A stretch of 64,000 nt of DNA, taken from NCBI GenBank assembly GCA_934149245.1, contig CAKPER010000002.1, positions 4,879-68,878 of the forward strand, given 5' to 3'. Positions 6,682 through 31,699 of the stretch are shown in pieces. The stretch comes from an uncultured Bacilli bacterium. Lineage in GTDB: Bacteria; Bacillota_I; Bacilli_A; RF39; UBA660. Every line of letters starts with the position of its first letter. The stretch's first letter is position 1. The notes under the pieces were generated by a model. That model ran no database searches. It saw nothing but the letters and a program-made list of their open reading frames with translations, and was not told the DNA's origin. Both the position numbers and the translations under genes were made by a program.

Positions 6682-8709
6682 ATGTCAAGAAAAGTAAAGA
6701 AAAAGCCGAAGAAGATATATAAAGTATTATCTTTTCTGCTTATATTAATATCCATTATCTTTGTTGCTTCACTTATATATTTTAATAGTTTACCAATCTT
6801 ATATTTAGGAATAATAATTGCTATAATAGGAATAATTGATTTATTTCTTGTTATGTTAATGTTACATAGTAGAAAGAAAAAAACAGGAGCATTGTTTTCG
6901 ATAGTATTTTCTATTATAATGGCTATTATTAGTTTTTTTGTGTTTAAGACAGCTGGGCTTTTAGGTAATTTAAATTTAAATTATAAAACTTATAATTATT
7001 CAGTAGTTGTTTTAAAGGATAGTAAATATAAAAAAATTAATGATATAAAGGGTAAAAATTTAGGATTTTATGAAACAGAGGGTAAAGAATGTGATAAATC
7101 TATTTCAAGATTAGCTAAAAAAGTTGATACTGATAATAGTGACTATGATGATGTTAGCACTCTAGCTCAAGATCTTTTTGATAAAAAGATGGATGCTATA
7201 TTAGTTGAAGATACTTATTTAGATATTTTAAATGAAAATGGTGTTACTACTAGTAATGATAGTAGTAGTGATACACATTCTTCTAGTTCTAGTGATAGCA
7301 GTACAGATACTAAGTCATTCAGTGATAAAACAAAAGTTATTTATAAATTTAGTATTGTAGTTAAAACTAGTGATATTTCTAAAGACCTAGATGTTACTAA
7401 AAAACCATTTAATATATATATCAGTGGTATAGATACTTATGGTAGTATTTCTTCAGTATCAAGAAGTGATGTTAATATGGTTGTTACAGTTAATCCTAAA
7501 ACTAAACAAATATTATTAACTTCCATTCCTCGTGATTATTATGTACATCTTCATGGGAAGAGTGGTTATAATGATAAATTAACTCATGCTGGATTATATG
7601 GAGTGGATATGTCTATTAAAACTATAGAAGATTTAATGGATATAGAGATAAACTATTATGTAAAAGTTAATTTTACAAGTGTTATAAATATTGTTGATGC
7701 AATTGGAGGAGTTGATGTATATTCAGATTATGATTTTACTTCTCTAGATGGATATAAATATAGTAAAGGATATAATAGTGTTGATGGAAAAGAAGCTTTA
7801 TCTTTTGCTAGAGAAAGAAAATCCTTTCAAGCGGGAGATAGGCAAAGAGTAAAAGATCAGCAAGCTCTATTAGAGGCTATGTTCAGAAAATGTACTAGCA
7901 CTTCTATTATAACTAAATATAATAGCTTGTTAGATTCAGTTTCAGGAAGTTTTGTTACAAATATGCCTACTGATAGATTAAAAGCTTTAATAAGAATGCA
8001 GGTAGCTAAGAAATATAAATGGACTATTACTGCTAATAGCCTAGATGGAGCAAATTCGTCTAACTATACTTATTCTTATTCTTCTCAAAAATTATATGTT
8101 ATGGAACCTATTGAAGATAGTGTAAATTATGCTCATAAGTTAATAAAATCTGTTGAAGAAGGTGAAAAACTAGACCCAACATTTGATGGAAATGCATCTG
8201 ATGTACATAAGGTAGCTCAAAGTTCAGCAGCAAAATCAAGTAGTAGTAGTTCTAGTAGCACATCTAGTTCTAGTAATTATAGTGAAAAGAATAATGAAGG
8301 ATTAAAGGTTTCTATTCCAAGAACAACGGAAACTATTACAGAGGGTGAAAGTTATGTATATTATCCTTACACAGCTACTTATAATGGAAAAGATGTAAGT
8401 GACAGTTCAAGTATTTCTTTCACTGTAAATGGTAAAGTATTTACCTCATATTATAATTTAATTAGCTATATTAGAGATTTAAGTGCAGGTGAGTATAATA
8501 TTGTTCATAAAGTATCTTATGGAGGAGAGAATAAGAGCTTAAATCAAACACTTATAGTAAAAGCAGGTGCTAAAAAGAATAACAGCTCTACTAATAATAG
8601 TGAGCAAGGTAATGATAATCAAAATACAACTTCTACTACAACTAGTGGTGGAAATAATGGTGATAGTGTTGATGAAAATGATATTGATGATGAGGCTTTA
8701 ACACCTTAA
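6682..8709 (+). CDS. LCP (LytR-CpsA-Psr) family cell-wall polymer transferase with Ser-rich linkers and a C-terminal Ig-like extension
   Basis: N-terminal TM helices. LCP core reads NIYISGIDTYG..SDVNMVVTVNP..ILLTSIPRDYYV..NYYVKVNF..ALSFARER. Poly-Ser tracts occur at ~7260-7310 and ~8235-8280. Confidence 0.85.
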   Translation: MSRKVKKKPKKIYKVLSFLLILISIIFVASLIYFNSLPILYLGIIIAIIGIIDLFLVMLMLHSRKKKTGALFSIVFSIIMAIISFFVFKTAGLLGNLNLNYKTYNYSVVVLKDSKYKKINDIKGKNLGFYETEGKECDKSISRLAKKVDTDNSDYDDVSTLAQDLFDKKMDAILVEDTYLDILNENGVTTSNDSSSDTHSSSSSDSSTDTKSFSDKTKVIYKFSIVVKTSDISKDLDVTKKPFNIYISGIDTYGSISSVSRSDVNMVVTVNPKTKQILLTSIPRDYYVHLHGKSGYNDKLTHAGLYGVDMSIKTIEDLMDIEINYYVKVNFTSVINIVDAIGGVDVYSDYDFTSLDGYKYSKGYNSVDGKEALSFARERKSFQAGDRQRVKDQQALLEAMFRKCTSTSIITKYNSLLDSVSGSFVTNMPTDRLKALIRMQVAKKYKWTITANSLDGANSSNYTYSYSSQKLYVMEPIEDSVNYAHKLIKSVEEGEKLDPTFDGNASDVHKVAQSSAAKSSSSSSSSTSSSSNYSEKNNEGLKVSIPRTTETITEGESYVYYPYTATYNGKDVSDSSSISFTVNGKVFTSYYNLISYIRDLSAGEYNIVHKVSYGGENKSLNQTLIVKAGAKKNNSSTNNSEQGNDNQNTTSTTTSGGNNGDSVDENDIDDEALTP

Positions 8710-19554: not shown

Positions 19555-19656
19555 CTAATCATAATTATACTTACTAATATTTAAAAGAATACTCATTGAT
19601 AACATAGTTATTAGAAGACTACTTCCTCCATAAGACAGAAACGGAAGAGTAACACC
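19555..19656 (-). pseudogene. 3' segment (33 codons plus stop) of a split SEDS (SpoVE/FtsW/RodA-family) gene
   Basis: Minus-strand translation GVTLPFLSYGGSSLLITMLSMSILLNISKYNYD*. This is the universally conserved SEDS C-terminal motif that is missing from the 22596-23588 ORF. There is no start codon or RBS of its own. Confidence 0.8.
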
Positions 19657-19699
19657 CTAAGTATTGCAAATACAACTTATTTTATGTAGGAAACATTTA

Positions 19700-19743
19700 C
19701 AAAATAACTGAAAAATGATAGTAATATTTCAAAATAACTGAAA
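19700..19743. repeat. Two direct copies of CAAAATAACTGAAA spaced 30 bp apart at the left end of the element
   Basis: Exact 14-mers at 19700-19713 and 19730-19743, between the junction and the recombinase stop codon. Confidence 0.7.
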
Positions 19744-19745
19744 TA

Positions 19746-21323
19746 TTATAGTTCTTCTAATAGCTCTGGAAATTTTAAATAAACATACACTTTTTTATCT
19801 TTGTCAATTTCAATCCTATCTACAAGCCTTTTTATTTGATCTTTAGTAGGATTCTTTAAAGACATATAATCTAATACAGAATTTTTACATCCACTAAATT
19901 TAGAATTATTTGTAGTTTGTTTTTCATTAACTTCTTTTTTCTTATTTAATTCTTCTAATTTCATATTAATTCTAGTTATTTCTTTATTTGTTTTGTCGTA
20001 AATTCTTTTATACATTTCTTTATCGACTAAGCCTTTAATCTTGTCCATATATAGATTATCTATGGTAGTATATTTCGAATTTAATAGATTATTTAATCTT
20101 TCAATTTTTTTATTTATTTCTTTTATATTTTTAATAACAATATTTTCTTCAGTTTCTTCTATTCCGTTAAAATCATAATATTTGCAAAATCTTTCACAGA
20201 TATTCTGTAGATATTCTATAATATCTTCTTCAAGCCAATCATAATTTATTCTGTGTGAGGAACAAATTCCATATTTTCCTTTTCTAGTATATAAATTACA
20301 TTGAGTATAATGCCTTACACCAGATTTTAAAACATCTTCACTTATTCTTATATTGCGTCCACACTCATGACAATAAAGCATACCACCTAATAAATAATCT
20401 AACTGACGATCTGTAACCCAAGTTGTTGATTTACTATCTAATATTTCTTGAACCTTATCAAATGTATCTTTTGATATTATTCCCTCATGAGTTCCTTTAA
20501 CAATAATTATTTCGTCTTGTGATGTTTTCCTTAGTTTTTTTGAATTATAACTAATTTTATTATGAGTATTTTGTACCATATTTCCTATATACATTTGGCT
20601 TGTTAATATTCCTTTAACTGTTTGCCTTTTCCATATACCAAAGCCATCATTTTCGTGTATCTTTTTTCCTCTAGGCTCGCCCTTATGAACAATAGGTATA
20701 GGTATCTTTTTTAAAGTTAAGTATTCTGCTATTTTATTTGGACTTTTTCCATCTAAAGCCAAGTCATAAATTAACTCAATAATATGTCTTACTTCTTCAT
20801 CAACAATTAATTTATGTCTATCATTTGGATCTTTCTTATATCCATATAAAGGGAATGAGCCAATATAATCACCTTTATTTTGTTTAGCCCTTAATGAACT
20901 TTTAACTTTCTTAGAAACATCTCTTAAATATAAATCGTTAACACTTAATCTAATTCCAAGCATTGAGTCCCCAATATTAGAATCATAGGAATCATTAATT
21001 GCAATATATCTAACACCACGCTCTAAAAAGTATTCTTCTATATATTTACCAGTTTTATACATTTCACGACCAAGTCTTGATAAATCTTTTGTAATAACAC
21101 AATTAATTTTACATGCTTCAATATCTTCAATCATTTCTTGAAAAGCTGGTCTATCAAAGTTACCACCAGAATAACCATCATCAACATAATGCTTATATAT
21201 TTTTAGGTTATTAAATTTTGCAAAAGAATCAATTATGATTTTTTGACTTTGAATAGATGATGATTCATCAATTTTATTGTCGGCATCAGATAATCTATCA
21301 TAAGCACCACAAATATATTCCAT
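19746..21323 (-). CDS. Large serine recombinase
   Basis: Resolvase domain with catalytic Ser in AYDRLSD, then DDGYSGGNFDRPAFQ and DLSRLGR. Followed by a recombinase domain, a Cys-rich zinc ribbon (CHECGRN..C..C) and a C-terminal coiled coil. AAGGAG RBS. Confidence 0.9.
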   Translation of the reverse strand: MEYICGAYDRLSDADNKIDESSSIQSQKIIIDSFAKFNNLKIYKHYVDDGYSGGNFDRPAFQEMIEDIEACKINCVITKDLSRLGREMYKTGKYIEEYFLERGVRYIAINDSYDSNIGDSMLGIRLSVNDLYLRDVSKKVKSSLRAKQNKGDYIGSFPLYGYKKDPNDRHKLIVDEEVRHIIELIYDLALDGKSPNKIAEYLTLKKIPIPIVHKGEPRGKKIHENDGFGIWKRQTVKGILTSQMYIGNMVQNTHNKISYNSKKLRKTSQDEIIIVKGTHEGIISKDTFDKVQEILDSKSTTWVTDRQLDYLLGGMLYCHECGRNIRISEDVLKSGVRHYTQCNLYTRKGKYGICSSHRINYDWLEEDIIEYLQNICERFCKYYDFNGIEETEENIVIKNIKEINKKIERLNNLLNSKYTTIDNLYMDKIKGLVDKEMYKRIYDKTNKEITRINMKLEELNKKKEVNEKQTTNNSKFSGCKNSVLDYMSLKNPTKDQIKRLVDRIEIDKDKKVYVYLKFPELLEEL

Positions 21324-21459
21324 TAATAAAATTGCTCCTTATTAAGTAAATTTATAATATTATTATTTTTATATTGCATAATAAATAAATTTAATTTTAA
21401 CTTAGATAGTACCAATATTTTATGCTTTTTTATTATCATTGATTTATTAAAGAAATAGG

Positions 21460-21594
21460 CTACTTTACTTTTAAATTTTTTAAATAACACAAATATCCCT
21501 CCTTTAGTATTTCTTCAAGTTTTGTACCATTCTTTTTATAAATAAAAGTTATATTTAATTTTCTTTTGACTCCATTTTTATCTATTCGCTTCAT
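21460..21594 (-). CDS. 44-codon ORF of unknown function inside the element
   Basis: MKRIDKNGVKRKLNITFIYKKNGTKLEEILKEGYLCYLKNLKVK. Weak AGAAAGG RBS. Lies between the TA terminator and the recombinase gene. Confidence 0.25.
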   Translation of the reverse strand: MKRIDKNGVKRKLNITFIYKKNGTKLEEILKEGYLCYLKNLKVK

Positions 21595-21623
21595 AAGTAT
21601 TTACCTTTCTTTAAAATATATTG

Positions 21624-21662
21624 TAAAAAAAGAAAATAATGTCTATAACATTCCGACATTAT
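21624..21662 (-). terminator. Terminator of the TA operon
   Basis: AATAATGTC / GACATTATT 9-bp stem. On the minus strand it is followed by a T-run. Confidence 0.55.
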
Positions 21663-21693
21663 TATTTTCGTATACATTATTTAAAGATAATAT

Positions 21694-22005
21694 TTAATTT
21701 AAAATACTATTAATATCCATTTTCTGATATAAAACTCTTACAATAGTAATTATTTTATCATTTTCATTTATAGTATAAAACATAAGAAAATTTTTAACTT
21801 TAATACTTCTATAACTGTTCTCTAAATTTGAAGTTGTTATATATTCAGAAAAGCTATAAGGAAAACTTAAAATATTATTTGCACTTTCTATGAAACACTT
21901 AGCTAAATTAATTGCAGCAGTGGTATTTTGTAAGGTATTAGAGATATAATATATAATATCATCTATATCTTTTTTGGCAATTGGTAAAAATTCTAATTTA
22001 TACAT
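21694..22005 (-). CDS. Type II toxin, ParE/RelE superfamily
   Basis: 103 aa. Profile-like pattern YKLEF.P.A.KDIDDII.YI......A...........L..FP......YR...VKNFLMFY.I.E....I.IVRVLY. Starts 1 nt after the antitoxin stop. Confidence 0.8.
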   Translation of the reverse strand: MYKLEFLPIAKKDIDDIIYYISNTLQNTTAAINLAKCFIESANNILSFPYSFSEYITTSNLENSYRSIKVKNFLMFYTINENDKIITIVRVLYQKMDINSILN

Positions 22006-22006
22006 A

Positions 22007-22288
22007 CTACCCTTTATTAATAATATTATTCATACTATTTTCTATATCATTTATGGTATATCTTTTAGAAGTACTATTTATTTCTGCTTCAGCTTCTTTC
22101 AATTTTTCATAAATCATTTCATCAGCTGTACTAGCTTTTACTTCAAATGGTATTTTTTGTTCTCTCAAAACAGCTTTTATAAACATATTCACAGCTGTTG
22201 AAACATTCATTCCAACATTATTACAAAACTTTTCAAAATTCTTTTTATCATTTGCATCTATTCTGACATTTAAAGTTAATGATTCCAT
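22007..22288 (-). CDS. Type II antitoxin, RelB/DinJ family
   Basis: AGAGGG RBS before ATG 22288. LTLNVRIDANDKKNFEKFCNNVGMNVSTAVNMFIKAVLREQKIPFEV is a typical ribbon-helix-helix DinJ/RelB fold sequence. Confidence 0.75.
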   Translation of the reverse strand: MESLTLNVRIDANDKKNFEKFCNNVGMNVSTAVNMFIKAVLREQKIPFEVKASTADEMIYEKLKEAEAEINSTSKRYTINDIENSMNNIINKG

Positions 22289-22539
22289 ATTATCCCTCTT
22301 TTCTAAACTAAGTATATAATTGTTGTGTGTATTTGTCAATACAATGTGTATATATATTAATACAAAGTATTTTTGTATACGATTATTACTAAAAATATAT
22401 TAAAGCTATAATAGTAGAATAAATTTTTTCAGTAATGGGAAAATTACCCCTTATTTTTATCTGCAAAATTTTGTGTTTATCTGTATTTTTTTAATATTTT
22501 ATCATTCTTATTATTTTTATTTTTTTATCAAATCTTTAA

Positions 22540-22561
22540 AAGCCTTTGAAAATAAAGGCTT
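22540..22561. terminator. Hairpin at the right end of the element
   Basis: AAGCCTTT-GAAAAT-AAAGGCTT 8-bp stem with T-rich flanks on both strands. It sits ~35 nt downstream (minus strand) of the premature stop of the SEDS 5' segment. Confidence 0.5.
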
Positions 22562-22595
22562 ATTTTGACTGTAGTTATCAGTTATATAGTAGGAC

Positions 22596-23588
22596 TTACC
22601 CTGTTACAGGAATTAATCCTACAACCACCATTAAATTAAGTAAAGTTTGAAATGCTAATCCAAAAGTAATTCCAAAAGCCAAATATTTTCCAAATTTATT
22701 TTCACAATGTTTACTTATTCTAAAACCTCTATAAATAATAATTATAAATAAAGAAGCTACTATTAAAATACCTAAAAAACCAAATTCTTCACTAATTATA
22801 GAAAAGATAAAATCGGTCTGTGGCTCTGGTAGATAAAAATGTTTTTGAATACTATTTTTAAAACCAACTCCCATTAAACCAGCTGGTCCTATTGCATACA
22901 GGCTCTGAATTATTTGAAAACCACTACCAAGTGGATCGGTCCAGGGATTTAAAAAAGATACTATTCTTTTTAATCTATAAGGTGCCACTATTATCAACAA
23001 AACTATACCAACTAAACCAAGTAATCCCATTTTTATAAAAAATGACATATTAACACCACTTATAAATAATAATCCTACTATAGTTACAACAATTATTACT
23101 CCCGTTCCGAAATCAGGTTGTAACATAATAAGAGCAAATACTAGCATTAAAACTATTAAAATAGGTAATACTCCTGTTTTAACATTTTTTAATATTTTTT
23201 CATTTTGCGTTAAATATTTTGATGTAAAAATAATCATTCCTAGTTTTGTAAACTCACTAGGTTGAATACCAAATCCGCCTATTCCAAACCAACTTCTAGA
23301 ACCATTTCTTACAGAACCAATTCCTGGAATTAAAACTAATACTAATAATAAAATACAACTAAAAAATATTAAATTGGCTCTATTTAAATATTTAGTATAA
23401 GGAACTTTTAACATCATATACATAATAATATAACCAATTACTAAAAATATACTCTGGGTAATAACAAATTTATAAGGATTATTAAATTTGTATTCAGCCC
23501 AAACATAAGATGATGAATATATCATAGTAACACCAAATAGTGATATAATTATAATAGCAAATAAAAGAATTAAATCTATATTTTTCAT
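22596..23588 (-). pseudogene. 5' segment (330 codons) of the split SEDS (SpoVE/FtsW/RodA-family) gene
   Basis: GGAGG RBS. Multi-TM translation with SEDS motifs (GSVRNGSRSWF..GIQPSEFTKL..QPDFGT..PEPQTDFIFS). It ends ..LIPVTG and then hits an element-encoded TAA, lacking the xxLPFxSYGGSS C-terminus. Confidence 0.85.
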
Positions 23589-23794
23589 GCTACCTCCTAA
23601 AGTAATGCTAACTTTCTTAATAAATATATCTTAAATCTATTAATTTAACATTAGTTTTCTTCTCATAATCTTCTATAAAATATTATTTATAAATGATATT
23701 AAATATGCTATTTGTCTGTAAAGTTAGTTTTAGATTATTGTAAATTATGATTGAATGTGTTATATATAAAATGTATTTTTTAGGAGGTGATTTA

Positions 23795-25579
23795 ATGAGA
23801 GAATATCTTTTAAGTATCAAAAGTGAAATAGAAAGAGTTGAAGTAATAAAAAAAATAGACAGTGATAAAGAAAAATCTAGGTGTTTAGAATTAATTTCTT
23901 CTCCTAAATTAAAAGCTGATATTATCAAAAGTTTTATAAGTGATGAAGAAAAGTGTAAGTATTTGGAAATATTATCTGATGACTATATTAGGGCTACTAT
24001 TATTACAAGTTTTCATGATGATAATCTTAAAGCAAATTTTATAAGAGTTTTAAAAGATGATTTATCTAAAATTAATATTATTAGAAGTATTAAAGATAAG
24101 CAACTTAGAATAAATTGTTTAGTAAATATTAAAAATATCAAGTATATAAGAAATATAATAGATCATGCTGAATATTTAGATACAATTATTATTCCAAATA
24201 AATTAATTGAAAAATATGCTAATTATTATAAAGTCAAGTTGTCTAGACTTAATAGTTTTATCTCTAAATTTGGCTACAAAATACTATGGATGATAGATAA
24301 CGACAACATCAAAGATGCTCTAAGGCTAAACAAGACAGATTTTTATAAATATATGGAACTATTTAAAGAAATAAATCTATTTTTAAATAATAATGATATT
24401 AATAATGCTACTAATTCAATACTTCAAAGAGAATTTAGATTAAAAAGACATGATATTTATTCAGTATATGGTATCCTAGAAGCAGCAATATCAACCAAAA
24501 ATAAAGATAATATTATAAAAATAATTAATGAAATAAGTAATTATGTTGATATAGATTTATTTATAAAGCCTCTAGGTTTATCAAGACAAGACTTTTTAAA
24601 TAGTATTTTAGAAGGAAAAAATAAAAATATTTTACATGATATTACTAATAAATATATAATGTTAAAGAGAAATGAATATGTAAGAGAAAGACAAAAACAT
24701 TTAAAAAAAGAGCTAAATCTTACTCAAAAATATGATAAAAAATTTATAACCAATAAAGTTATTACAACTACATCTACTAATGATATTCTAACTCTTATAT
24801 CCAAGTGTAATAAAAATAGATTATCAAGTCAAGCTCTAGAGCTTATAAAGAATGAGAAAGTTTTAAGCGAAATAATTAACTTTAAAAAAGATCCTAGCAG
24901 GTGTCAAAATAAAAAGGCTATCTTTCCTTATTTAAAAATCTTTAATGAAATTCTAACTAATTTATATGATATGGATCTTCTAAAAACTTCTGTTAAAGAT
25001 GAAGAGTGCAAATATGTCTATATTATAGATAATGTTAGTGCTGATACTTTAGTTAGTGTTACTAGTTTTTTTAATGTTGAAAAAATGATAGAGAATATTT
25101 TTAATAACTCTGCTTTGTATAATCAGTTGCTCCAGGATTTAGATAAATATAAGTTTATAGGAAGTCTAGATATATACACTAATATAGTAAAAAATGCTGA
25201 TTTAGATTATAGTAGTAGTACTGTTGCTAGTTTTATTAGTAATTATGATAGAATAACAAAGTATATTAAGGATTATAATATAATTCCATCATTCACAACT
25301 CTTATGGAGGTTGCTGGTGTTTATGATAGTAGCTCTTATAAATATGAAATATTATTTGGTAGGGAAAATAGCAAACTATTAGTCCATAATCTACCAGCTA
25401 ATAGTGCTTCTATGTCTAAAAATCTCAGACTAGAAAATGCTATTTATTATATTAATATTATGTATAAAAGAAAGTACATAACTGTACCACCAATTGATGA
25501 AGATATATCTATAAATGGTAAAAACATAAATATTAATTTAGGAAATTTTACTGATATGATTAATTTAACTTATGGCTAA
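23795..25579 (+). CDS. Unknown protein, N-terminal part: ~26-aa helical repeats followed by a large uncharacterised region
   Basis: AGGAGG RBS before ATG 23795. Repeats of the type xIIKSFISDEEKCKYLEILSDDYIRA occur 4 times. Terminated by a single TAA that is in frame with the next ORF. Confidence 0.6.
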   Translation: MREYLLSIKSEIERVEVIKKIDSDKEKSRCLELISSPKLKADIIKSFISDEEKCKYLEILSDDYIRATIITSFHDDNLKANFIRVLKDDLSKINIIRSIKDKQLRINCLVNIKNIKYIRNIIDHAEYLDTIIIPNKLIEKYANYYKVKLSRLNSFISKFGYKILWMIDNDNIKDALRLNKTDFYKYMELFKEINLFLNNNDINNATNSILQREFRLKRHDIYSVYGILEAAISTKNKDNIIKIINEISNYVDIDLFIKPLGLSRQDFLNSILEGKNKNILHDITNKYIMLKRNEYVRERQKHLKKELNLTQKYDKKFITNKVITTTSTNDILTLISKCNKNRLSSQALELIKNEKVLSEIINFKKDPSRCQNKKAIFPYLKIFNEILTNLYDMDLLKTSVKDEECKYVYIIDNVSADTLVSVTSFFNVEKMIENIFNNSALYNQLLQDLDKYKFIGSLDIYTNIVKNADLDYSSSTVASFISNYDRITKYIKDYNIIPSFTTLMEVAGVYDSSSYKYEILFGRENSKLLVHNLPANSASMSKNLRLENAIYYINIMYKRKYITVPPIDEDISINGKNININLGNFTDMINLTYG

Positions 25580-25594
25580 AGAACAGGCTCTTGT

Positions 25595-26341
25595 ATGAGA
25601 ATAGGGGGAACAGGGGCAACTTTGTTTGATTTTTGTCTGAAAAATGATAATGGTTTTCATATTTGTTTGCGTGATAAAAATAGTATGAACTTTATTAGTC
25701 GAGTAAGTGGATTCAGAAATGGTAACACGGTCTTTTTAAATCAACTTAGAAATAGTGTTCTAGCAACTTATGATGATTATGATATAGTTAGTGCCATTAA
25801 AGTAGTTGCAGATATGTTAATTGAAAGAACTAAAGATAGTAAGTTTCCTATTGCTAATGTTATTATATCATCTGATTTTGCTATGAATAAATATGTAGAC
25901 TTAATAGAAAATTTAGAAATTAATGATAGTAGAGATGGTTATGATTATTTTTATGCTGATGTAGAAAATAGTGGTATTGTATTAGCAAGTAGTAATAATA
26001 AAAAGTTAGTTCCAATAGAATTAGGAACTAATAATTGTTCTAAATATTTAGTTAATCGAAAGAAGGTTCATGAATATGATGCTGGTGTTCAAGATGATTT
26101 TTCTGATAAAATAGCAAGTATTCAAATTATTGATCAAGTATTAGAAGATATTCCTTTTGAAGATTGTGATTATATTGTTCCAAATGGAATTGTTAAATGT
26201 TATATAGGTGAGGATTGGTATTTAACTAAAGATATAGATGGTAACATTCAGAAATATATTATGTCTAATTCTAATAATAAGGAATTAGCTCTAGAAGAAA
26301 TTAATAATATATTAGCTAAAAACAAGATAAGAAAAAGGTAA
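25595..26341 (+). CDS. Unknown protein, C-terminal part (same frame as 23795-25579)
   Basis: No RBS precedes ATG 25595. The frame is open from 25580 (RTGSCMRIGGTGATLFDF..). It is separated from the upstream ORF by only one stop codon. Confidence 0.5.
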   Translation: MRIGGTGATLFDFCLKNDNGFHICLRDKNSMNFISRVSGFRNGNTVFLNQLRNSVLATYDDYDIVSAIKVVADMLIERTKDSKFPIANVIISSDFAMNKYVDLIENLEINDSRDGYDYFYADVENSGIVLASSNNKKLVPIELGTNNCSKYLVNRKKVHEYDAGVQDDFSDKIASIQIIDQVLEDIPFEDCDYIVPNGIVKCYIGEDWYLTKDIDGNIQKYIMSNSNNKELALEEINNILAKNKIRKR

Positions 26342-26354
26342 GGAGGTAATTAAT

Positions 26355-26591
26355 ATGGTATTGAAAAGAGAAATAGGTTCTGGAAAAGTAATTGATTATG
26401 ATGGAAGCTTTGGCTCTATTAAAGATAATAATCAAAATGAATATTTATTTTCTAAAGATGATATTTTAGATAAAAAAGATATTAAAATAGGGGGAATTGT
26501 TACTTTTGAAAAAGAAATTCAAAAAAATATAGAAGTACCTTCGGTTAAGAGAGCTAGATTTGTAAGGTGTCGAAAAAAGCAAAAATATTAA
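26355..26591 (+). CDS. Small cold-shock-domain-like (OB-fold) protein with a basic tail
   Basis: AAGGAGG RBS. GKVIDYDGSFGSIKDNNQNEYLFSKDDI..IGGIVTFE aligns by eye with the CspA pattern GxVKWFxxxKGFGFI..VFVHxSxI..GxxVxFE, but the RNP1/RNP2 aromatics are degenerate. Confidence 0.5.
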   Translation: MVLKREIGSGKVIDYDGSFGSIKDNNQNEYLFSKDDILDKKDIKIGGIVTFEKEIQKNIEVPSVKRARFVRCRKKQKY

Positions 26592-26599
26592 ACTTGTAG

Positions 26600-26627
26600 T
26601 TGACAAAAACTGATTAAGTGCTATAAT
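26600..26627 (+). promoter_or_regulatory. Near-consensus SigA promoter for the amidoligase operon
   Basis: TTGACA, 16-nt spacer, then TGcTATAAT (extended -10), 25 nt upstream of the ATG. Confidence 0.6.
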
Positions 26628-26652
26628 ATTTTTCTATCAAGGGGGATTTAAT

Positions 26653-27609
26653 ATGTGGTATGATGAGTTAGAAAAACGTAATACAATTAATTTGCCATCT
26701 GATGTTACTTTTGGCGTGGAAATAGAATTTGCTAAGGCTAGTAAGCTTTATGTTGAGGATGAAATAGAAACTGGATTTAAAAATAATATTTTAAATAAAA
26801 ATTGGAAAGTTGAAAATGAAAAAACACTATATGAAAGTGGTGTTTGCTATTCTATCTATGGAGGAGAAGCAGTTAGTGATATTTTAATTGATTCTAAGAG
26901 TGATTGGAATGGTATCTCTTATGTTTGTGATTCTATAAAGAAATATAGAGGAAAAATAAATCAAAATTGTGGTGCTCATGTTCATATTGGCGAAAATATA
27001 TTTGCTAGTAATTTAAAATATTATGCAAGATTTATGAAACTTTGGACAATATATGAAGAGATTATTACAAGATTTTGTTTTGGAGAATATAGTACTCCTA
27101 GAAGAAGTTTTTATAATTTTTCAGGAACTTGCACTAATTTATTTAAACATATAGATTTGTTTTACAAGAATGATAAAGTAATTAGAAGTTTTGATGAATT
27201 TATTAGTTGTTATTCTAGATTTAAAAATGAAGCTGTTAGCTTTTATGGAGTAGATAAACAAAATATTTTAAAAAAGTATGGTTCTGATGTTGATTGGGAA
27301 CATTATAAAACTATAGAATTTAGAGCTGGGAATGGAACACTAAATCCTGTTATTTGGCAAAATTATGTTAATTTATATACCAAATTAATGCTAATATGTC
27401 TAGATGATTCTAAAGATTGGGATATGATAGATAAATTATTTTATAAAAATATTGAACAAGAAGATTTTAGTCTTGATATTAATATTCCTAAAGCTTTAGA
27501 GTTTGTTGATTTAATATTTGATAACAATATAGATAAAGAGTACTTTTTAACTCAATATCTAAAGAAAGATAAAAGTGATATTAAGAAATTAATAAAAAGA
27601 ATGGGGTGA
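26653..27609 (+). CDS. Amidoligase (Amidoligase_2 / GCS2-glutamine-synthetase-like COOH-NH2 ligase family)
   Basis: GGGGGA RBS. Motifs TFGVEIEF, CGAHVHIG and TIEFRAGNGTLN are characteristic of the 'putative amidoligase enzyme' family. Confidence 0.7.
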   Translation: MWYDELEKRNTINLPSDVTFGVEIEFAKASKLYVEDEIETGFKNNILNKNWKVENEKTLYESGVCYSIYGGEAVSDILIDSKSDWNGISYVCDSIKKYRGKINQNCGAHVHIGENIFASNLKYYARFMKLWTIYEEIITRFCFGEYSTPRRSFYNFSGTCTNLFKHIDLFYKNDKVIRSFDEFISCYSRFKNEAVSFYGVDKQNILKKYGSDVDWEHYKTIEFRAGNGTLNPVIWQNYVNLYTKLMLICLDDSKDWDMIDKLFYKNIEQEDFSLDINIPKALEFVDLIFDNNIDKEYFLTQYLKKDKSDIKKLIKRMG

Positions 27610-27615
27610 TTTACT

Positions 27616-28308
27616 TTGAAAATTATAGGTGTAGTAGGTAGGGCGTATTATAATAAAGATGATCAAAAAATTATGCAAGTAAATGAAGATATTAGAAGGG
27701 CTTTTTGTAAATATGATGATGTTACTATGATAGAAATATTACCACCAAATGATATTTATTATGTTACATCTAAGATGGGTGAAGATAAATTAGATAATAT
27801 TTCATTAAATAAATTAAATTATATTCTAGAACTTTGCGATGGTTTTATAGTACCAGGTGGTAGCTATTGGTATAATTTTGATGAATATGTAATTGAATAT
27901 GCTATTAACAAAAATAAACCTCTACTTTGTATTTGTTTAGGTTTTCAAGCACTATGTAGTAAATATTCTAAAGATAGAAATAAATTTGATATGACTAGTT
28001 CATGTAAAGACAATAGTCATTATGGAGATAGTTATTCATATATTCATGATATTAATATATTAGATAATACTAAGCTAAAGAATATCTTAAAAGAAGATGT
28101 TATAAAAGTTAATAGTATTCATAAATCTTATATAAATACAGAGTTTAACAAATTAGTAGTATCAGCTTATTCTAGCGATAATATAATAGAAGCTGTAGAA
28201 ATTCCAAATCTAAATTTTGTTTTAGGAATACAGTGGCATCCAGAATATATAATGGATGATGCTTCTATTAAAATATTTGATAGTTTTGTAGATAGTATGA
28301 AAAAATAA
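27616..28308 (+). CDS. Class I glutamine-amidotransferase-like peptidase C26 (gamma-glutamyl amide hydrolase, PuuD-like)
   Basis: GGGGTGA RBS with TTG start. Nucleophile elbow LLCICLGFQAL and His/Glu in GIQWHPE, so the triad looks intact. Confidence 0.75.
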   Translation: MKIIGVVGRAYYNKDDQKIMQVNEDIRRAFCKYDDVTMIEILPPNDIYYVTSKMGEDKLDNISLNKLNYILELCDGFIVPGGSYWYNFDEYVIEYAINKNKPLLCICLGFQALCSKYSKDRNKFDMTSSCKDNSHYGDSYSYIHDINILDNTKLKNILKEDVIKVNSIHKSYINTEFNKLVVSAYSSDNIIEAVEIPNLNFVLGIQWHPEYIMDDASIKIFDSFVDSMKK

Positions 28309-28342
28309 AAAAATATAGAAATTATTTATATTGTAAAACATG

Positions 28343-28375
28343 AAAAAGGCCTCTAAAAAAATAGAGGCTTTTTTG
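28343..28375. terminator. Bidirectional terminator
   Basis: AAAAAGGCCTCTA-loop-TAGAGGCTTTTTT lies between convergent genes. Confidence 0.65.
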
Positions 28376-28417
28376 ATACTTTCAAAAACTAGAAATAATT
28401 TTAAATTTATTAAATAA

Positions 28418-29359
28418 TTATATATCTTGTAGTTTAAATTTTTCTTTTATCCAATTATAAATATATCCCATAATGTCTTTAGAATTAGTTTCTCTTAATA
28501 TATCATGTCTTAAATTAGGATAAATTTTTAAAGTAACATCATTAATATTAGCTTTTTTATATAATTTATAAACTTTTTTTACTCCGTTTCCATTATTTCC
28601 AACTGGATCACTACCACCAGAAATTAGTAAAATAGGAATATCTTTTTCAATATTATTTATTGAAGATTTATTACAAGTGGAAATCATACTACAAAGTAAT
28701 TCTCTAAATAATCCGATTGAGAAATCACTTCCTCTATTTGGATCGTTTATATACTTATCCAATTCGATATTATTAGCACATAGCCAGTCATATTCAGTCC
28801 TATTAGGTTTAAATTTTTGATTATATGTTTCAAATGTTAATTTATGTATTAAAGGAGTTGATTCTTTTTCATTATTTTTTTTGGCTTCATTATTAACTAA
28901 TTTTAAAAGTAATTTCAAAATTAAAGGATTATTATATCCCGTTCCAACTAAAATAGTTCCATCAATTTCTTTATGATATTTTTGTAAATAATCTCTAACG
29001 GCAAAAGAACCAAGTGAAAATCCTAACAATATATAAGGTACATTAGGATATTCTTCTTTTGTCTTTTGTGTAAGTGTATGAATATCCTCAACAATATACT
29101 TCCAACTTCCTGTTGGACCACAATACATTTTCTCACTATTATCTATTAACGATTTTCCATGACCTAAATGATCGTTACCTACAACGATAAATCCCAAGTT
29201 AGTAAAAAATTCAGCAAATTCCTTATATCTTAGTATATATTCTGTTACTCCGTGTGCTACTTGTATTACCCCTAAAATTTTCTTATCAGTTGTCCATTTA
29301 ACAGCATGAATATTAGTTTTTTCATTTGCTGATAAATAATTAAATTCTTCCATCTTCAT
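28418..29359 (-). CDS. Alpha/beta hydrolase (lysophospholipase / monoacylglycerol-lipase-like)
   Basis: HGVTEY..RY..FA..GF.V...DHLGHGKS and nucleophile elbow GFSLGS. C-terminal HD for the triad. Confidence 0.75.
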   Translation of the reverse strand: MKMEEFNYLSANEKTNIHAVKWTTDKKILGVIQVAHGVTEYILRYKEFAEFFTNLGFIVVGNDHLGHGKSLIDNSEKMYCGPTGSWKYIVEDIHTLTQKTKEEYPNVPYILLGFSLGSFAVRDYLQKYHKEIDGTILVGTGYNNPLILKLLLKLVNNEAKKNNEKESTPLIHKLTFETYNQKFKPNRTEYDWLCANNIELDKYINDPNRGSDFSIGLFRELLCSMISTCNKSSINNIEKDIPILLISGGSDPVGNNGNGVKKVYKLYKKANINDVTLKIYPNLRHDILRETNSKDIMGYIYNWIKEKFKLQDI

Positions 29360-29530
29360 AATAATCCACCTTACTTTAAATATATTATGCCATAAAATTA
29401 TCTAAAATAAAAGCTCTATTTAAAATATATAAATCATTAATTATATTTTAGATTTTTATCTCTAGATTAAATTATTGATATATGGACTAAATTTCATTAT
29501 CTTTTCATATTATTTTTATAGGTGAATTGT

Positions 29531-30616
29531 ATGAAGAAAATATTAGTAAGTATAATGTTATTTTTTATCTTTATATCAAGTGCTAATGCAAGTGTGAGTA
29601 GTGCTAGTGAATATATTTTGTTAGAGCAGAAAACAGGTAGGATTTTAGAAGGCAAGAACTATAATACACCCTTATTAATTGCCTCTATTACCAAAATAAT
29701 GACAGCTGTAATAGCAATAGAATCTGGAAAATTAGATAAAGAACTTACTGTTGATGATACTATCTTAAAGGCATATGGCTCAGGTGTTTATATCGAAATT
29801 GGTGAAAAAATGACTTTAAGGGACTTATTATATGGCTTAATGTTAAGAAGTGGAAATGATGCAGCATTAATGATTGCTAAATATACATCTGGTAGCGTTT
29901 CTAAATTTGTTGAGCAAATGAATAAAAAGGCCAATGAATTAGGGATGATTAATACCAAATTTGTCAATCCTAGTGGCTTAGATAATGAAGATGGTGGCAA
30001 CTATTCAACTGCATATGACATGGCCATATTAACAAGATATGCTATGGCAAATAAAGATTATCGTGAAATTACAAAAACTAAAAGCTACAAATTACAAACC
30101 AATAAAAAGACTTATATTTGGAAAAATAAAAATAAATTATTAAATTATGATTACATAACTGGTGGTAAGACAGGATATACAGATAAAGCAAGAAGAACAT
30201 TAGTCTCAACTGCTAGTAAAAACAATATTGATTTGATAGTTGTAACTCTAAAAGATAGTGATGATTGGAATACACATAAATCATTGTATGAAAAAGCCTA
30301 TAGTGAATATAAATTATATAAATTTCAAGATAAAAATAAGTTAAATATCAAAGATAAAAATAAGTATAAAGGTAAATTGTATCTAAAAAAAGATGTGGTA
30401 ATACCAGTAAAAGAAGCTGAACTTAATAATATGAGTTCTAAAATAAAATTATTATCAACTTCTAAAAAAAAGAATAATTCTAAAGTAGGGGAGTATCAAA
30501 TATATTTAGATAAAGTTATGATTTATAAAGAAGATATTTATTTAAAAAGAAAGACTAAGAGTAATTCTAAGAAAAAGAGTTATCTTTTTGATAAGATTAA
30601 GGAGAATTTTACATGA
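29531..30616 (+). CDS. dacB: D-alanyl-D-alanine carboxypeptidase (sporulation-type PBP5*)
   Basis: AGGTGA RBS before ATG 29531. Signal peptide, then SITK (SxxK), SGND (SxN) and KTGYT (KTG). Followed by spmA-spmB as in Bacillus. Confidence 0.8.
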   Translation: MKKILVSIMLFFIFISSANASVSSASEYILLEQKTGRILEGKNYNTPLLIASITKIMTAVIAIESGKLDKELTVDDTILKAYGSGVYIEIGEKMTLRDLLYGLMLRSGNDAALMIAKYTSGSVSKFVEQMNKKANELGMINTKFVNPSGLDNEDGGNYSTAYDMAILTRYAMANKDYREITKTKSYKLQTNKKTYIWKNKNKLLNYDYITGGKTGYTDKARRTLVSTASKNNIDLIVVTLKDSDDWNTHKSLYEKAYSEYKLYKFQDKNKLNIKDKNKYKGKLYLKKDVVIPVKEAELNNMSSKIKLLSTSKKKNNSKVGEYQIYLDKVMIYKEDIYLKRKTKSNSKKKSYLFDKIKENFT

Positions 30617-31203
30617 TTAATTATATCTTTGGTATCTTTATTATAATTGGTATAGTTTATAGCTTTTTTACAGGTAATGTTGATGTTTTAAATAATAGTT
30701 TAATATCCTCTGGAGAAGATGCTATTAGTATGATTTTTAAAATGATTCCTTTATTATGCTTATGGTTGGGCGTTATGAAAATAGCAGAAGCCTCTAATTT
30801 AGTTGATAAAATATCAGGCTTTCTTTCTAAAATAATTCATCCATTATTTCCAGAACTTAAAAAAAATACTTCTTCAATAAGTTATATAGCTACTAATATT
30901 GCGATGAATATGCTAGGATTAGGTAGTGGAGCAACTCCTTTTGGATTAAAAGCTATGGAAAGTATGCAACAAGAAAATGATAAAAAAGATACTGCTAGTA
31001 GAAGTATGATAACTTTTCTTGTTATAAATACAGCATCTGTTACTATAATTCCGACAACAGTAATTAGTATGCGTATCCTAGCCGGTTCAACAAGTCCTAC
31101 AATAATAGTACCAGCAAGCATTATAACAACTATCTTATCTTGTTTTTTAGCTCTAATTTTTGATAGAATATTTTATCATATTTGGAGTGGTAAGTATGGC
31201 TAA
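30613..31203 (+). CDS. spmA: Spore maturation protein A
   Basis: Nucleoside-recognition/Gate-type membrane protein overlapping the dacB stop. Conserved dacB-spmA-spmB order. Confidence 0.75.
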   Translation: MINYIFGIFIIIGIVYSFFTGNVDVLNNSLISSGEDAISMIFKMIPLLCLWLGVMKIAEASNLVDKISGFLSKIIHPLFPELKKNTSSISYIATNIAMNMLGLGSGATPFGLKAMESMQQENDKKDTASRSMITFLVINTASVTIIPTTVISMRILAGSTSPTIIVPASIITTILSCFLALIFDRIFYHIWSGKYG

Positions 31204-31699
31204 TATTATTATACCCCTAATAGTACTTACTATAATCTTTTATGGTGTTATTAAAAATGTCTCTATCTATGACAAATTTTTAGAAGGTGTTAAAGAAGGT
31301 TTATCATTAGCTTTCAATATTTTTCCAACTATGTTTGCTATGACAATATGTATAAATGTAATTTTAAAAAGCAATATTATTAATGATTTATCTAGGTTAA
31401 TATCGCCTTATTTGTTTGGGTATCCTAAAGAATTAATTCCTTTAGCTATAATGCGTCCGTTATCAGGTTCATCTTCTTTAATTATCTTGGATAATATCTT
31501 AAAAACTAAAGGGCCAGATAGTTTTATTGGTAATGTTGCTTCAGTTCTTCAAGGAAGTACAGATACTACTATTTATATAATTAGTCTATACTTTTCAGCG
31601 GTTGGTATCAAAAAAATTAAATATTCTCTAATAGTGGGTTTACTAGCAGATTTTATGGCTATAATTATTTCTTTTGTTGTAGTAAAAATACTATTATAA
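31196..31699 (+). CDS. spmB: Spore maturation protein B
   Basis: GGAGTGG RBS before ATG 31196, overlapping the spmA stop. Membrane protein, second half of the Gate-domain pair. Confidence 0.75.
   Translation: MANIIIPLIVLTIIFYGVIKNVSIYDKFLEGVKEGLSLAFNIFPTMFAMTICINVILKSNIINDLSRLISPYLFGYPKELIPLAIMRPLSGSSSLIILDNILKTKGPDSFIGNVASVLQGSTDTTIYIISLYFSAVGIKKIKYSLIVGLLADFMAIIISFVVVKILL

Follow-up and report, generated by a model that had tools for sequence, protein, structure and literature searches.

A predicted two-gene operon, pairing an Amidoligase_2-family carboxylate-amine ligase of 318 amino acids (aa) with a cysteine amidohydrolase of the Peptidase_C26 family (230 aa, referred to below as C26), was identified in a 64,000-nucleotide (nt) stretch of DNA from an uncultured member of the Bacilli (contig CAKPER010000002.1, positions 4,879 to 68,878), the whole of which is called the window. 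The reading tentatively favoured here, by analogy with PuuA and PuuD of E. coli, is a cytoplasmic operon that would make and break, or salvage, the amide bond of a small molecule. As judged from its sequence context, the operon appears uncoupled both from an upstream module encoding a small OB-fold (oligonucleotide/oligosaccharide-binding) protein and a large protein and from a nearby serine-recombinase element. The features of the operon are as follows.

26600..26627, plus strand: predicted sigma-70-type promoter, TTGACA-16 nt-TATAAT with an extended -10 TG (12/12 consensus matches)
26653..27609, plus strand: Amidoligase_2-family carboxylate-amine ligase, 318 aa (Pfam PF12224, fold model, invariant residues, polymorphism ratio)
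27616..28308, plus strand: PuuD-like class-I GATase-fold cysteine amidohydrolase (Peptidase_C26), 230 aa, TTG start (Pfam PF07722, catalytic triad, polymorphism ratio)
28349..28374, no strand assigned: GC-rich hairpin (GCCTCTA-loop-TAGAGGC), T-runs on either strand, one terminator-like site in the scan (0.5 expected from shuffled sequence)

Operon signals and enzyme families

The window has a G+C content of 24.9% and its plus strand holds four reading units between 23.7 and 28.4 kb, namely a split large open reading frame (ORF) followed by ORFs of 78, 318 and 230 aa. The promoter is the single perfect match within 23400-28600 (5.2 kb) and lies 25 nt from the amidoligase start. Six nucleotides separate the amidoligase stop from the C26 start, no internal terminator was found in the amidoligase-C26 segment, and the hairpin proper (28349-28368) behind the C26 gene is followed by TTTTTT on the plus strand. 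This hairpin is predicted to serve as a common terminator for the operon and for a convergent alpha/beta-hydrolase gene, and on these signals the two enzyme genes are almost certainly co-transcribed. An earlier annotation made from the letters alone (the sequence-only reading) had described a near-consensus promoter and a terminator bracketing the two genes, and its motifs, coordinates and operon signals all proved correct. No terminator was found after the 78-aa gene, so read-through from the upstream genes is possible.

The amidoligase matched PF12224 with 44.9 bits (cut-off 22, E 1.7e-11) over residues 18-245, corresponding to profile positions 3-244 of 245, and carries all three motifs (FGVEIEF, CGAHVHIG and IEFRAGNGT) on which the same family assignment had been based. 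NCBIfam returned no model for it, a PDB sequence search with its profile gave nothing significant, and neither a Gln-synt_C nor a Mur_ligase domain was matched in a Pfam scan. An AlphaFold model built on 39 homologues (predicted local distance difference test, pLDDT, of 94.2) featured a glutamine-synthetase/YbdK-type core lacking an N-terminal beta-grasp domain and a family-specific C-terminal helical region (residues ~250-318). The top Foldseek matches were YbdK/GCS2, glutamine synthetases of types I-III, gamma-glutamylmethylamide synthetase, Dop/PafA and glutamate-cysteine ligase, with probabilities of 0.95-1.0, TM-scores of only 0.37-0.46 and about 12% identity. The model places the protein far out in the carboxylate-amine ligase superfamily, without a close solved relative. 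Residues G21, E23, E25, E72, H109, H111, E135, R150 and E222 were invariant in the 39 homologues and R224 was nearly so, and this set of conserved Glu, His and Arg residues is compatible, by the fold, with an ATP/metal site.

Distant relatives of the amidoligase (28% identity) are carried by approximately 100 Clostridium perfringens plasmids. One of these, a cpe enterotoxin plasmid of ~75 kb (NZ_CP075928.1), encodes a 468-aa "amidoligase family protein" at 71036-72442 which is 28% identical over 93% of its length, and in this single plasmid region no GATase or C26 gene was annotated beside the amidoligase. A Klebsiella fimbrial "amidoligase" described in the literature is an ATP-grasp enzyme and was set aside as irrelevant.

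The C26 protein matched PF07722 with 88.1 bits (cut-off 20.5, E 9.7e-25) and the GATase class-I model with 54 bits (E 2.3e-14), and includes the motifs CICLGFQ and GIQWHPE. Its catalytic residues C107, H208 and E210 were invariant in 24 aligned orthologues, which bears out both the family identity and the intact Cys-His-Glu triad reported in the sequence-only reading. The N-terminus (MKIIG...) aligns with the orthologues from residue 1, and the TTG start is therefore confirmed. The closest solved relatives by sequence were E. coli PuuD (6VTV) and Listeria Lin1909 (3FIJ), whose matches cover residues 92-228 only (the C-terminal 137 residues). The best NCBIfam matches were the glutaminase domains of CTP synthase and GMP synthase, and scores were far from every equivalog cut-off, including those of PuuD (NF008471, 49.1 bits against 266) and GatD (16 against 400). 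Orthology to PuuA/PuuD, GatD or gamma-glutamyl-CDP-amidate hydrolase was rejected, as all scores fell far under the curated cut-offs. With a PuuD score of this size and no Gln-synt_C match, neither enzyme gene is an orthologue of one from a known polyamine or folate pathway, in agreement with the sequence-only reading. In a related locus (L208, 5455-6148) the C26 gene has an apparently non-standard start, CTG or similar, after a good ribosome-binding site AGAGGTGA, and gene callers give just a truncated product of 178 aa.

The ratio of nonsynonymous to synonymous polymorphism (pN/pS), calculated against two conspecific contigs of 98-99% identity and from small counts, was 0.24-0.26 for the amidoligase and 0.06-0.11 for C26. 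The low values indicate that both genes are maintained, and in every conspecific contig they are intact and evolve under purifying selection. From our own reading of the N-terminal sequences both enzymes appear to be cytoplasmic.

Evolutionary linkage of the two genes

A total of 119 amidoligase loci were dereplicated at 85% identity into 60 groups, and every ORF of these loci was searched with the window proteins; the genome scan alignment consisted of 16 sequences. The amidoligase clade to which the window belongs (43-54% identity) included eight lineages with usable flanks, and in six of the eight a C26 gene is located downstream of the amidoligase, on the same strand and within 3.7 kb. The two genes adjoin directly in the window species and in L208, the order amidoligase-HD-C26 (HD being a gene for an HD-type hydrolase) occurs in L001, L128 and L207, and L010 features the longer series amidoligase, 472-aa protein, sortase, HD and C26. 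No C26 gene was found within 7-8 kb of the amidoligase in L008 and L011, and since these two lineages are nested inside the clade on a rough neighbour-joining (NJ) tree the linkage is taken to be ancestral. The HD protein scored 152.9 bits in L207 and 151.3 bits in L001 against TIGR01353, scores which sit at the threshold of 152.35 bits, and it is dGTP-triphosphohydrolase-like. There is no HD gene anywhere in the 64-kb window. The ancestral unit of the clade is thus taken to be amidoligase-HD-C26, of which the window is an HD-less derivative.

A serious alternative, nearly as likely as a common small-molecule pathway, is that the amidoligase and C26 genes are neighbours by descent and have no common substrate. 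C26 would then be a widespread housekeeping enzyme whose true partners are (deoxy)nucleoside triphosphate ((d)NTP) hydrolases, the amidoligase an accessory enzyme acting on an unrelated substrate, and their adjacency a result of HD deletion and conserved synteny. The evolutionary range of the two families fits this explanation, as C26 formed more than 120 clusters at 50% identity or above compared with approximately 11 amidoligase clusters at that level and 19 at 42% or above, numbers that are indicative only because the cluster searches rest on a word index. It is also consistent with the unequal constraint seen, the ligase gene having a pN/pS of 0.25 and C26 one of 0.06-0.11.

Several further observations weigh against a common pathway. 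Among 80 species-level C26 loci an amidoligase occurred within 8 kb in two (L120 and L128, of which L120 is the same contig as L001), and the same distance held for two of 29 close C26 orthologues. In favour of the small-molecule reading, C26 orthologues occur alone in most species, so that the protein is better regarded as a stand-alone hydrolase than as an obligate glutaminase subunit. In four lineages the translational coupling of C26 is with HD and not with the ligase; the HD and C26 genes overlap or abut at the following positions.

L001 4701-6534: HD and C26 pair
L207 10989-12814: HD and C26 pair
L128 6871-8693: HD and C26 pair
L010 10456-12278: HD and C26 pair

In L129 and L132 (both at 7401-8678) C26 is fused to a Ham1/RdgB ITPase domain. 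These two loci come from related metagenome-assembled genomes with 88% nucleotide identity and are effectively one lineage. The HD overlaps and the fusion both count in favour of descent, and the sequence-only reading, which had described the ligase and hydrolase as a dedicated pair, is contradicted by the HD gene that lies between them in relatives and overlaps C26 there, and by the predominance of C26 loci without an amidoligase. A recurrent tie between the C26 family of the window and (d)NTP hydrolases (HD and Ham1) was noted as an observation in its own right.

The genes around the pair also count against a common pathway. Downstream of C26 a convergent gene of 458-506 aa has kept its place in many lineages, and where the flank was available a Mur-type ligase gene often lay beyond it (L122, L128, L207 and L208). 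Because these convergent, non-operonic genes have remained syntenic equally deep, inherited order alone could explain the adjacency of the enzymes. In L127 ftsW is directly beside C26. Loss of a middle gene automatically brings the flanking genes together. On the amidoligase side, no neighbour was conserved across the 60 dereplicated groups, a C26 orthologue was within 6 kb in only three of them, and the distant amidoligases (24-37% identity) had housekeeping surroundings and were sometimes present as tandem paralogues. In the literature searched, no Amidoligase_2 member with a demonstrated substrate or biochemistry was found, a further point against the proposed pathway.

Descent alone is less easily reconciled with the retention of gene order in six of the eight lineages despite changed upstream flanks (ftsW in some, DcuC in others and a recombinase in one) and despite loss of HD in two lineages that the rough NJ tree places apart. 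The common strand, the tight spacing and the absence of an internal terminator also speak for a functional connection, and pairs of a ligase and an amidohydrolase recur in unrelated Amidoligase_2 contexts (PMC3890496, PMC11318856). Of the modification cycle suggested in the sequence-only reading, a real and intact two-gene operon with an ancestral gene order was upheld, while a dedicated pairing and neighbouring proteins as targets were not.

Proposed chemistry and comparison with known systems

The analysis establishes what the genes are, the modelled folds, which catalytic residues are conserved, the operon signals and how the genes are distributed; the chemistry, the coupling of the enzymes and any common substrate are inferred. 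By analogy with its fold relatives, the amidoligase would use ATP to turn a carboxylate into an acyl-phosphate, to which an amine would then be joined, and C26, acting as a stand-alone Cys-His-Glu amidohydrolase, would cleave gamma-glutamyl-type amides. After loss of HD from the ancestral amidoligase-HD-C26 unit the two enzymes would have come to lie 6 nt apart behind one strong promoter, from which an amide metabolite of the cytoplasm could be made and broken, or salvaged. The links of C26 with HD and Ham1 are a hint of a phosphorylated or nucleotide-related compound as this metabolite. A bolder and improbable extension is that the amidoligase, the dGTPase-like HD protein and C26 constitute an undescribed three-enzyme pathway of uncultured gut Bacilli that builds and dismantles an amide-modified metabolite of phosphorylated or nucleotide type, with the widespread C26 family, including its Ham1/ITPase fusion, being a new nucleotide-associated "house-cleaning" amidohydrolase that partners (d)NTP hydrolases.

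An improbable alternative is a two-subunit glutamine-dependent amidotransferase, by analogy with MurT/GatD and split GMP synthase, in which the GATase-fold subunit would hydrolyse glutamine and channel ammonia to a subunit of glutamine-synthetase fold that amidates an ATP-activated carboxylate. Enzymes of glutamine-synthetase fold use ammonia or amines as the nucleophile, which would suit such a division of labour, as would the class-I GATase match, the best NCBIfam matches to synthase glutaminase domains and the 6-nt spacing with its suggestion of translational coupling. It is disfavoured by the stronger match of C26 to Peptidase_C26 than to GATase (88 against 54 bits), by closest solved relatives that are PuuD-type hydrolases, by the 16 bits reached against the GatD equivalog, and by the occurrence of C26 mostly alone or with HD or Ham1, which would be unexpected for the obligate glutaminase subunit of a ligase. 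Like the window pair, MurT/GatD (lipid II isoglutaminyl synthase) is encoded by two genes, one for an enzyme that activates a carboxylate with ATP and one for a protein of class-I GATase fold, but MurT is a Mur-ligase homologue rather than a protein of glutamine-synthetase fold, and the window-type C26 is mostly found without a ligase.

A parallel to an operon that makes and breaks a small amide is PuuA/PuuD of E. coli, an ATP-dependent gamma-glutamyl ligase of glutamine-synthetase fold and a C26 hydrolase of the resulting gamma-glutamyl amide, PuuD being the closest solved relative of the window C26. The 318-aa window ligase is no homologue of PuuA or GlnA and has neither Gln-synt_C nor the beta-grasp domain, the hydrolase differs from PuuD in its low equivalog score and in an alignment confined to residues 92-228, and genes resembling puuB, puuC, puuP and puuR are absent from the vicinity of the operon. 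The best structural matches of the amidoligase model were the YbdK entries 1TT4 and 1R8G and several glutamine synthetases, all with probability 1.0. From these YbdK/GCS2 ligases and glutamine synthetases the amidoligase differs by the low TM-scores and identity already given, the lack of any sequence-level match and a C-terminal helical domain of its own.

Pairs involving the same ligase family are known from phages and prophages. In 2009 Iyer, Abhiman, Burroughs and Aravind reportedly predicted GATase-type and gamma-glutamyl cyclotransferase-type enzymes as Amidoligase_2 neighbours in phages, prophages and conjugative elements. An amidoligase is located beside a class II GATase in LUZ24-like phages (PMC3890496) and in OM43 phages (PMC10580990), and beside a gamma-glutamyl cyclotransferase in C. 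clostridioforme prophages (PMC11318856); all three papers cite the 2009 prediction. These pairs resemble that of the window in setting an Amidoligase_2 ligase beside a gamma-glutamyl- or amide-cleaving enzyme, with function predicted in all cases. The window differs in its partner, a class-I GATase-fold C26 protein in a Firmicute, in its chromosomal location without a phage, plasmid or defence context, and in the dGTPase-like HD gene of the ancestral operon. Because the amidoligase-C26 pairing is limited to a single small clade and has no relation to the genes beside it or to the recombinase element, it is treated as a variant of the already predicted ligase/hydrolase theme and not as a new tagging or defence system. 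The class-I GATase-fold partner and the ancestral HD partner set it apart within that theme.

The window clade offers a compact chromosomal setting of two or three genes in which a substrate of an Amidoligase_2 enzyme can be sought. Real coupling would extend the ligase/amidase theme predicted in 2009 by a partner of class-I GATase fold and possibly by a nucleotide hydrolase. If the coupling is not real, the locus would illustrate that deletion and inherited synteny can imitate a dedicated enzyme pair.

Upstream genes, recombinase insert and host context

The genes preceding the operon in the window are as follows.

22596..23588, minus strand: SEDS gene spoVE/ftsW, between the recombinase element and the upstream block (NCBIfam)
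23795..26341, plus strand: large repeat protein, 848 aa in relatives, interrupted here by TAA at 25577-25579
26355..26591, plus strand: OB/cold-shock-like small protein, 78 aa (cold-shock-like barrel model; partner of the upstream large gene)

The large ORF is present in the window as two pieces of 610 and 248 aa (23747-25579 and 25595-26341). The in-frame TAA corresponds to GAA in the conspecific contig L002, where the gene stays intact at 848 aa, and falls directly ahead of the most conserved motif of the protein, GERTGSCMRIGG. A repeat protein of about 860 aa, as described in the sequence-only reading, is therefore found in conspecifics at 848 aa but not as a single ORF here. In the conspecific contig L040 the gene also matched as two separate pieces, with an indel. 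The large gene is probably a pseudogene in the window and appears to be decaying within the species. Only four homologue clusters were found among 5.8 billion proteins, at loci with housekeeping contexts from which the amidoligase and C26 were both absent. The C-terminal domain of the protein has the invariant motif GERTG[SA]CMR[IS]GG...SRV[ST]GFRxGNTxFLN and no Pfam match.

The 78-aa protein gave no Pfam match, and the cold-shock domain model (PF00313) was not matched even at E values up to 10. Its AlphaFold model is a five-stranded barrel (pLDDT 81) whose best PDB matches were UNR cold-shock domains, CspA, CspB and IF1 (TM-scores 0.5-0.73, E ~3e-3). At the positions of the RNP1 and RNP2 aromatic motifs it shows GSFGSI and EYLFSK, which depart from the RNP motifs of cold-shock domains; those of CspA are KGFGFI and VFVHF. 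The earlier designation as a cold-shock-like OB-fold protein is fair as a description of the modelled fold and does not extend to membership of the cold-shock domain family. An exhaustive search found 21 relatives, made up of small proteins of 66-83 aa and multi-repeat proteins, and the OB domain recurs as five to eight tandem copies in proteins of 730-934 aa.

In L203, L204, L205 and L206 the small-protein homologue lies immediately behind the large-protein homologue or overlaps it, and the 78-aa protein therefore belongs with the large protein and not with the ligase. The two-gene module spans 2669-6884 in L203 and 2682-6210 in L205, with a large protein of 848-1337 aa and an OB partner of ~70 aa. 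The amidoligase and C26 were always absent from these four loci and from three with the large protein (L200-L202), other genes stand upstream in the remaining seven amidoligase lineages, and all four genes occurred together in the window species only. The conserved block of four or five genes envisaged in the sequence-only reading was thus not seen in either direction.

These neighbourhoods bear on the model of that reading, in which the operon would reversibly tag and de-tag the OB-fold or large repeat protein, possibly within a defence or mobile island. Its ligase fold is common to the Pup ligase PafA and the depupylase Dop, whose structures were among the fold matches of the amidoligase, the genes adjoin and may be read through from upstream, and distant Amidoligase_2 members occur in phages and on C. 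perfringens plasmids. It is nevertheless very improbable, as the upstream pair in other loci is never accompanied by the enzymes, these upstream genes are absent from every other amidoligase lineage, and both the window and L040 combine a broken large gene with intact enzymes. No Pup-like gene was found. Pup is disordered and ends in a C-terminal Gln or Glu, whereas the 78-aa protein is a predicted folded OB barrel with a basic tail that ends in ...RKKQKY, without a Gln/Glu tail, and the class-I GATase fold of the window hydrolase is unrelated to that of Dop. The OB-fold and large proteins were rejected as ligase substrates on the independence of their module in four other loci and on the broken large gene.

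The proposed defence or mobile setting fared no better. The five proteins of the block had no match in PADLOC-DB 2.0 at E values up to 0.1, and a scan of viral contigs with the amidoligase family alignment found no relative. The amidoligase matched the phage profile phrog_2443 weakly (E 4.7e-8) and a Porphyromonas phage protein at 24.5% identity, one of only two such partial matches in the phage collection. The amidoligase loci are chromosomal and show no sign of a defence, phage or mobile-island context. Such a setting was rejected on these results and on the separate nature of the recombinase insert, and whether or not the two enzymes are coupled, the ideas of a tagging system and a defence island can be dropped at this locus.

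Apart from a 2.94-kb insert at 19657-22599, which the contigs of 98-99% identity lack, L002 and L040 are collinear with the window. The insert has three genes, for a RelE-family toxin, its RelB/DinJ-type antitoxin partner and a large serine recombinase whose best NCBIfam matches were CcrC, CcrB and XisF, and it splits the SEDS gene between ...LIPVTG and VTLPFLSYGGSS..., leaving a 33-codon 3' remnant (19555-19656, minus strand) of a gene that is intact at 362 aa in conspecific contigs. The best model for the SEDS gene was spoVE, under whose cut-off it falls because it is truncated, and it passes the cut-off of ftsW. Its position at 22596-23588 means that the block does not abut the recombinase element, as had been thought. 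The element resembles a skin-type intervening element, in miniature, within a sporulation gene and is, on the contig comparison, a strain-specific insertion unrelated to the enzyme operon. In L208, which represents a different species, a homologous recombinase is located beside an ftsW 3' remnant that starts at the same motif (1217-2998).

Neighbours of the locus include spoVE/ftsW, the alpha/beta hydrolase and, at 29522-31699, an S11 D-alanyl-D-alanine carboxypeptidase gene followed by two Gate-domain genes. A cell-wall theme, prompted by ftsW, S11 peptidase, MurE, M14-like peptidase, sortase and SpaA genes near various family members, was considered and not adopted, as by a rough estimate such neighbours occurred as often as expected by chance in genomes of ~1.2-1.5 Mb, and as both enzymes appear cytoplasmic. 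The S11 and Gate genes match the layout of the dacB-spmA-spmB spore-cortex operon of Bacillus. Together with the spoVE-like gene, this arrangement suggests that the host forms spores, and the best reading of the host is an uncultured spore-forming gut member of the Bacilli with a G+C content of 25%, in which the operon would be chromosomal, lineage-restricted and metabolic.

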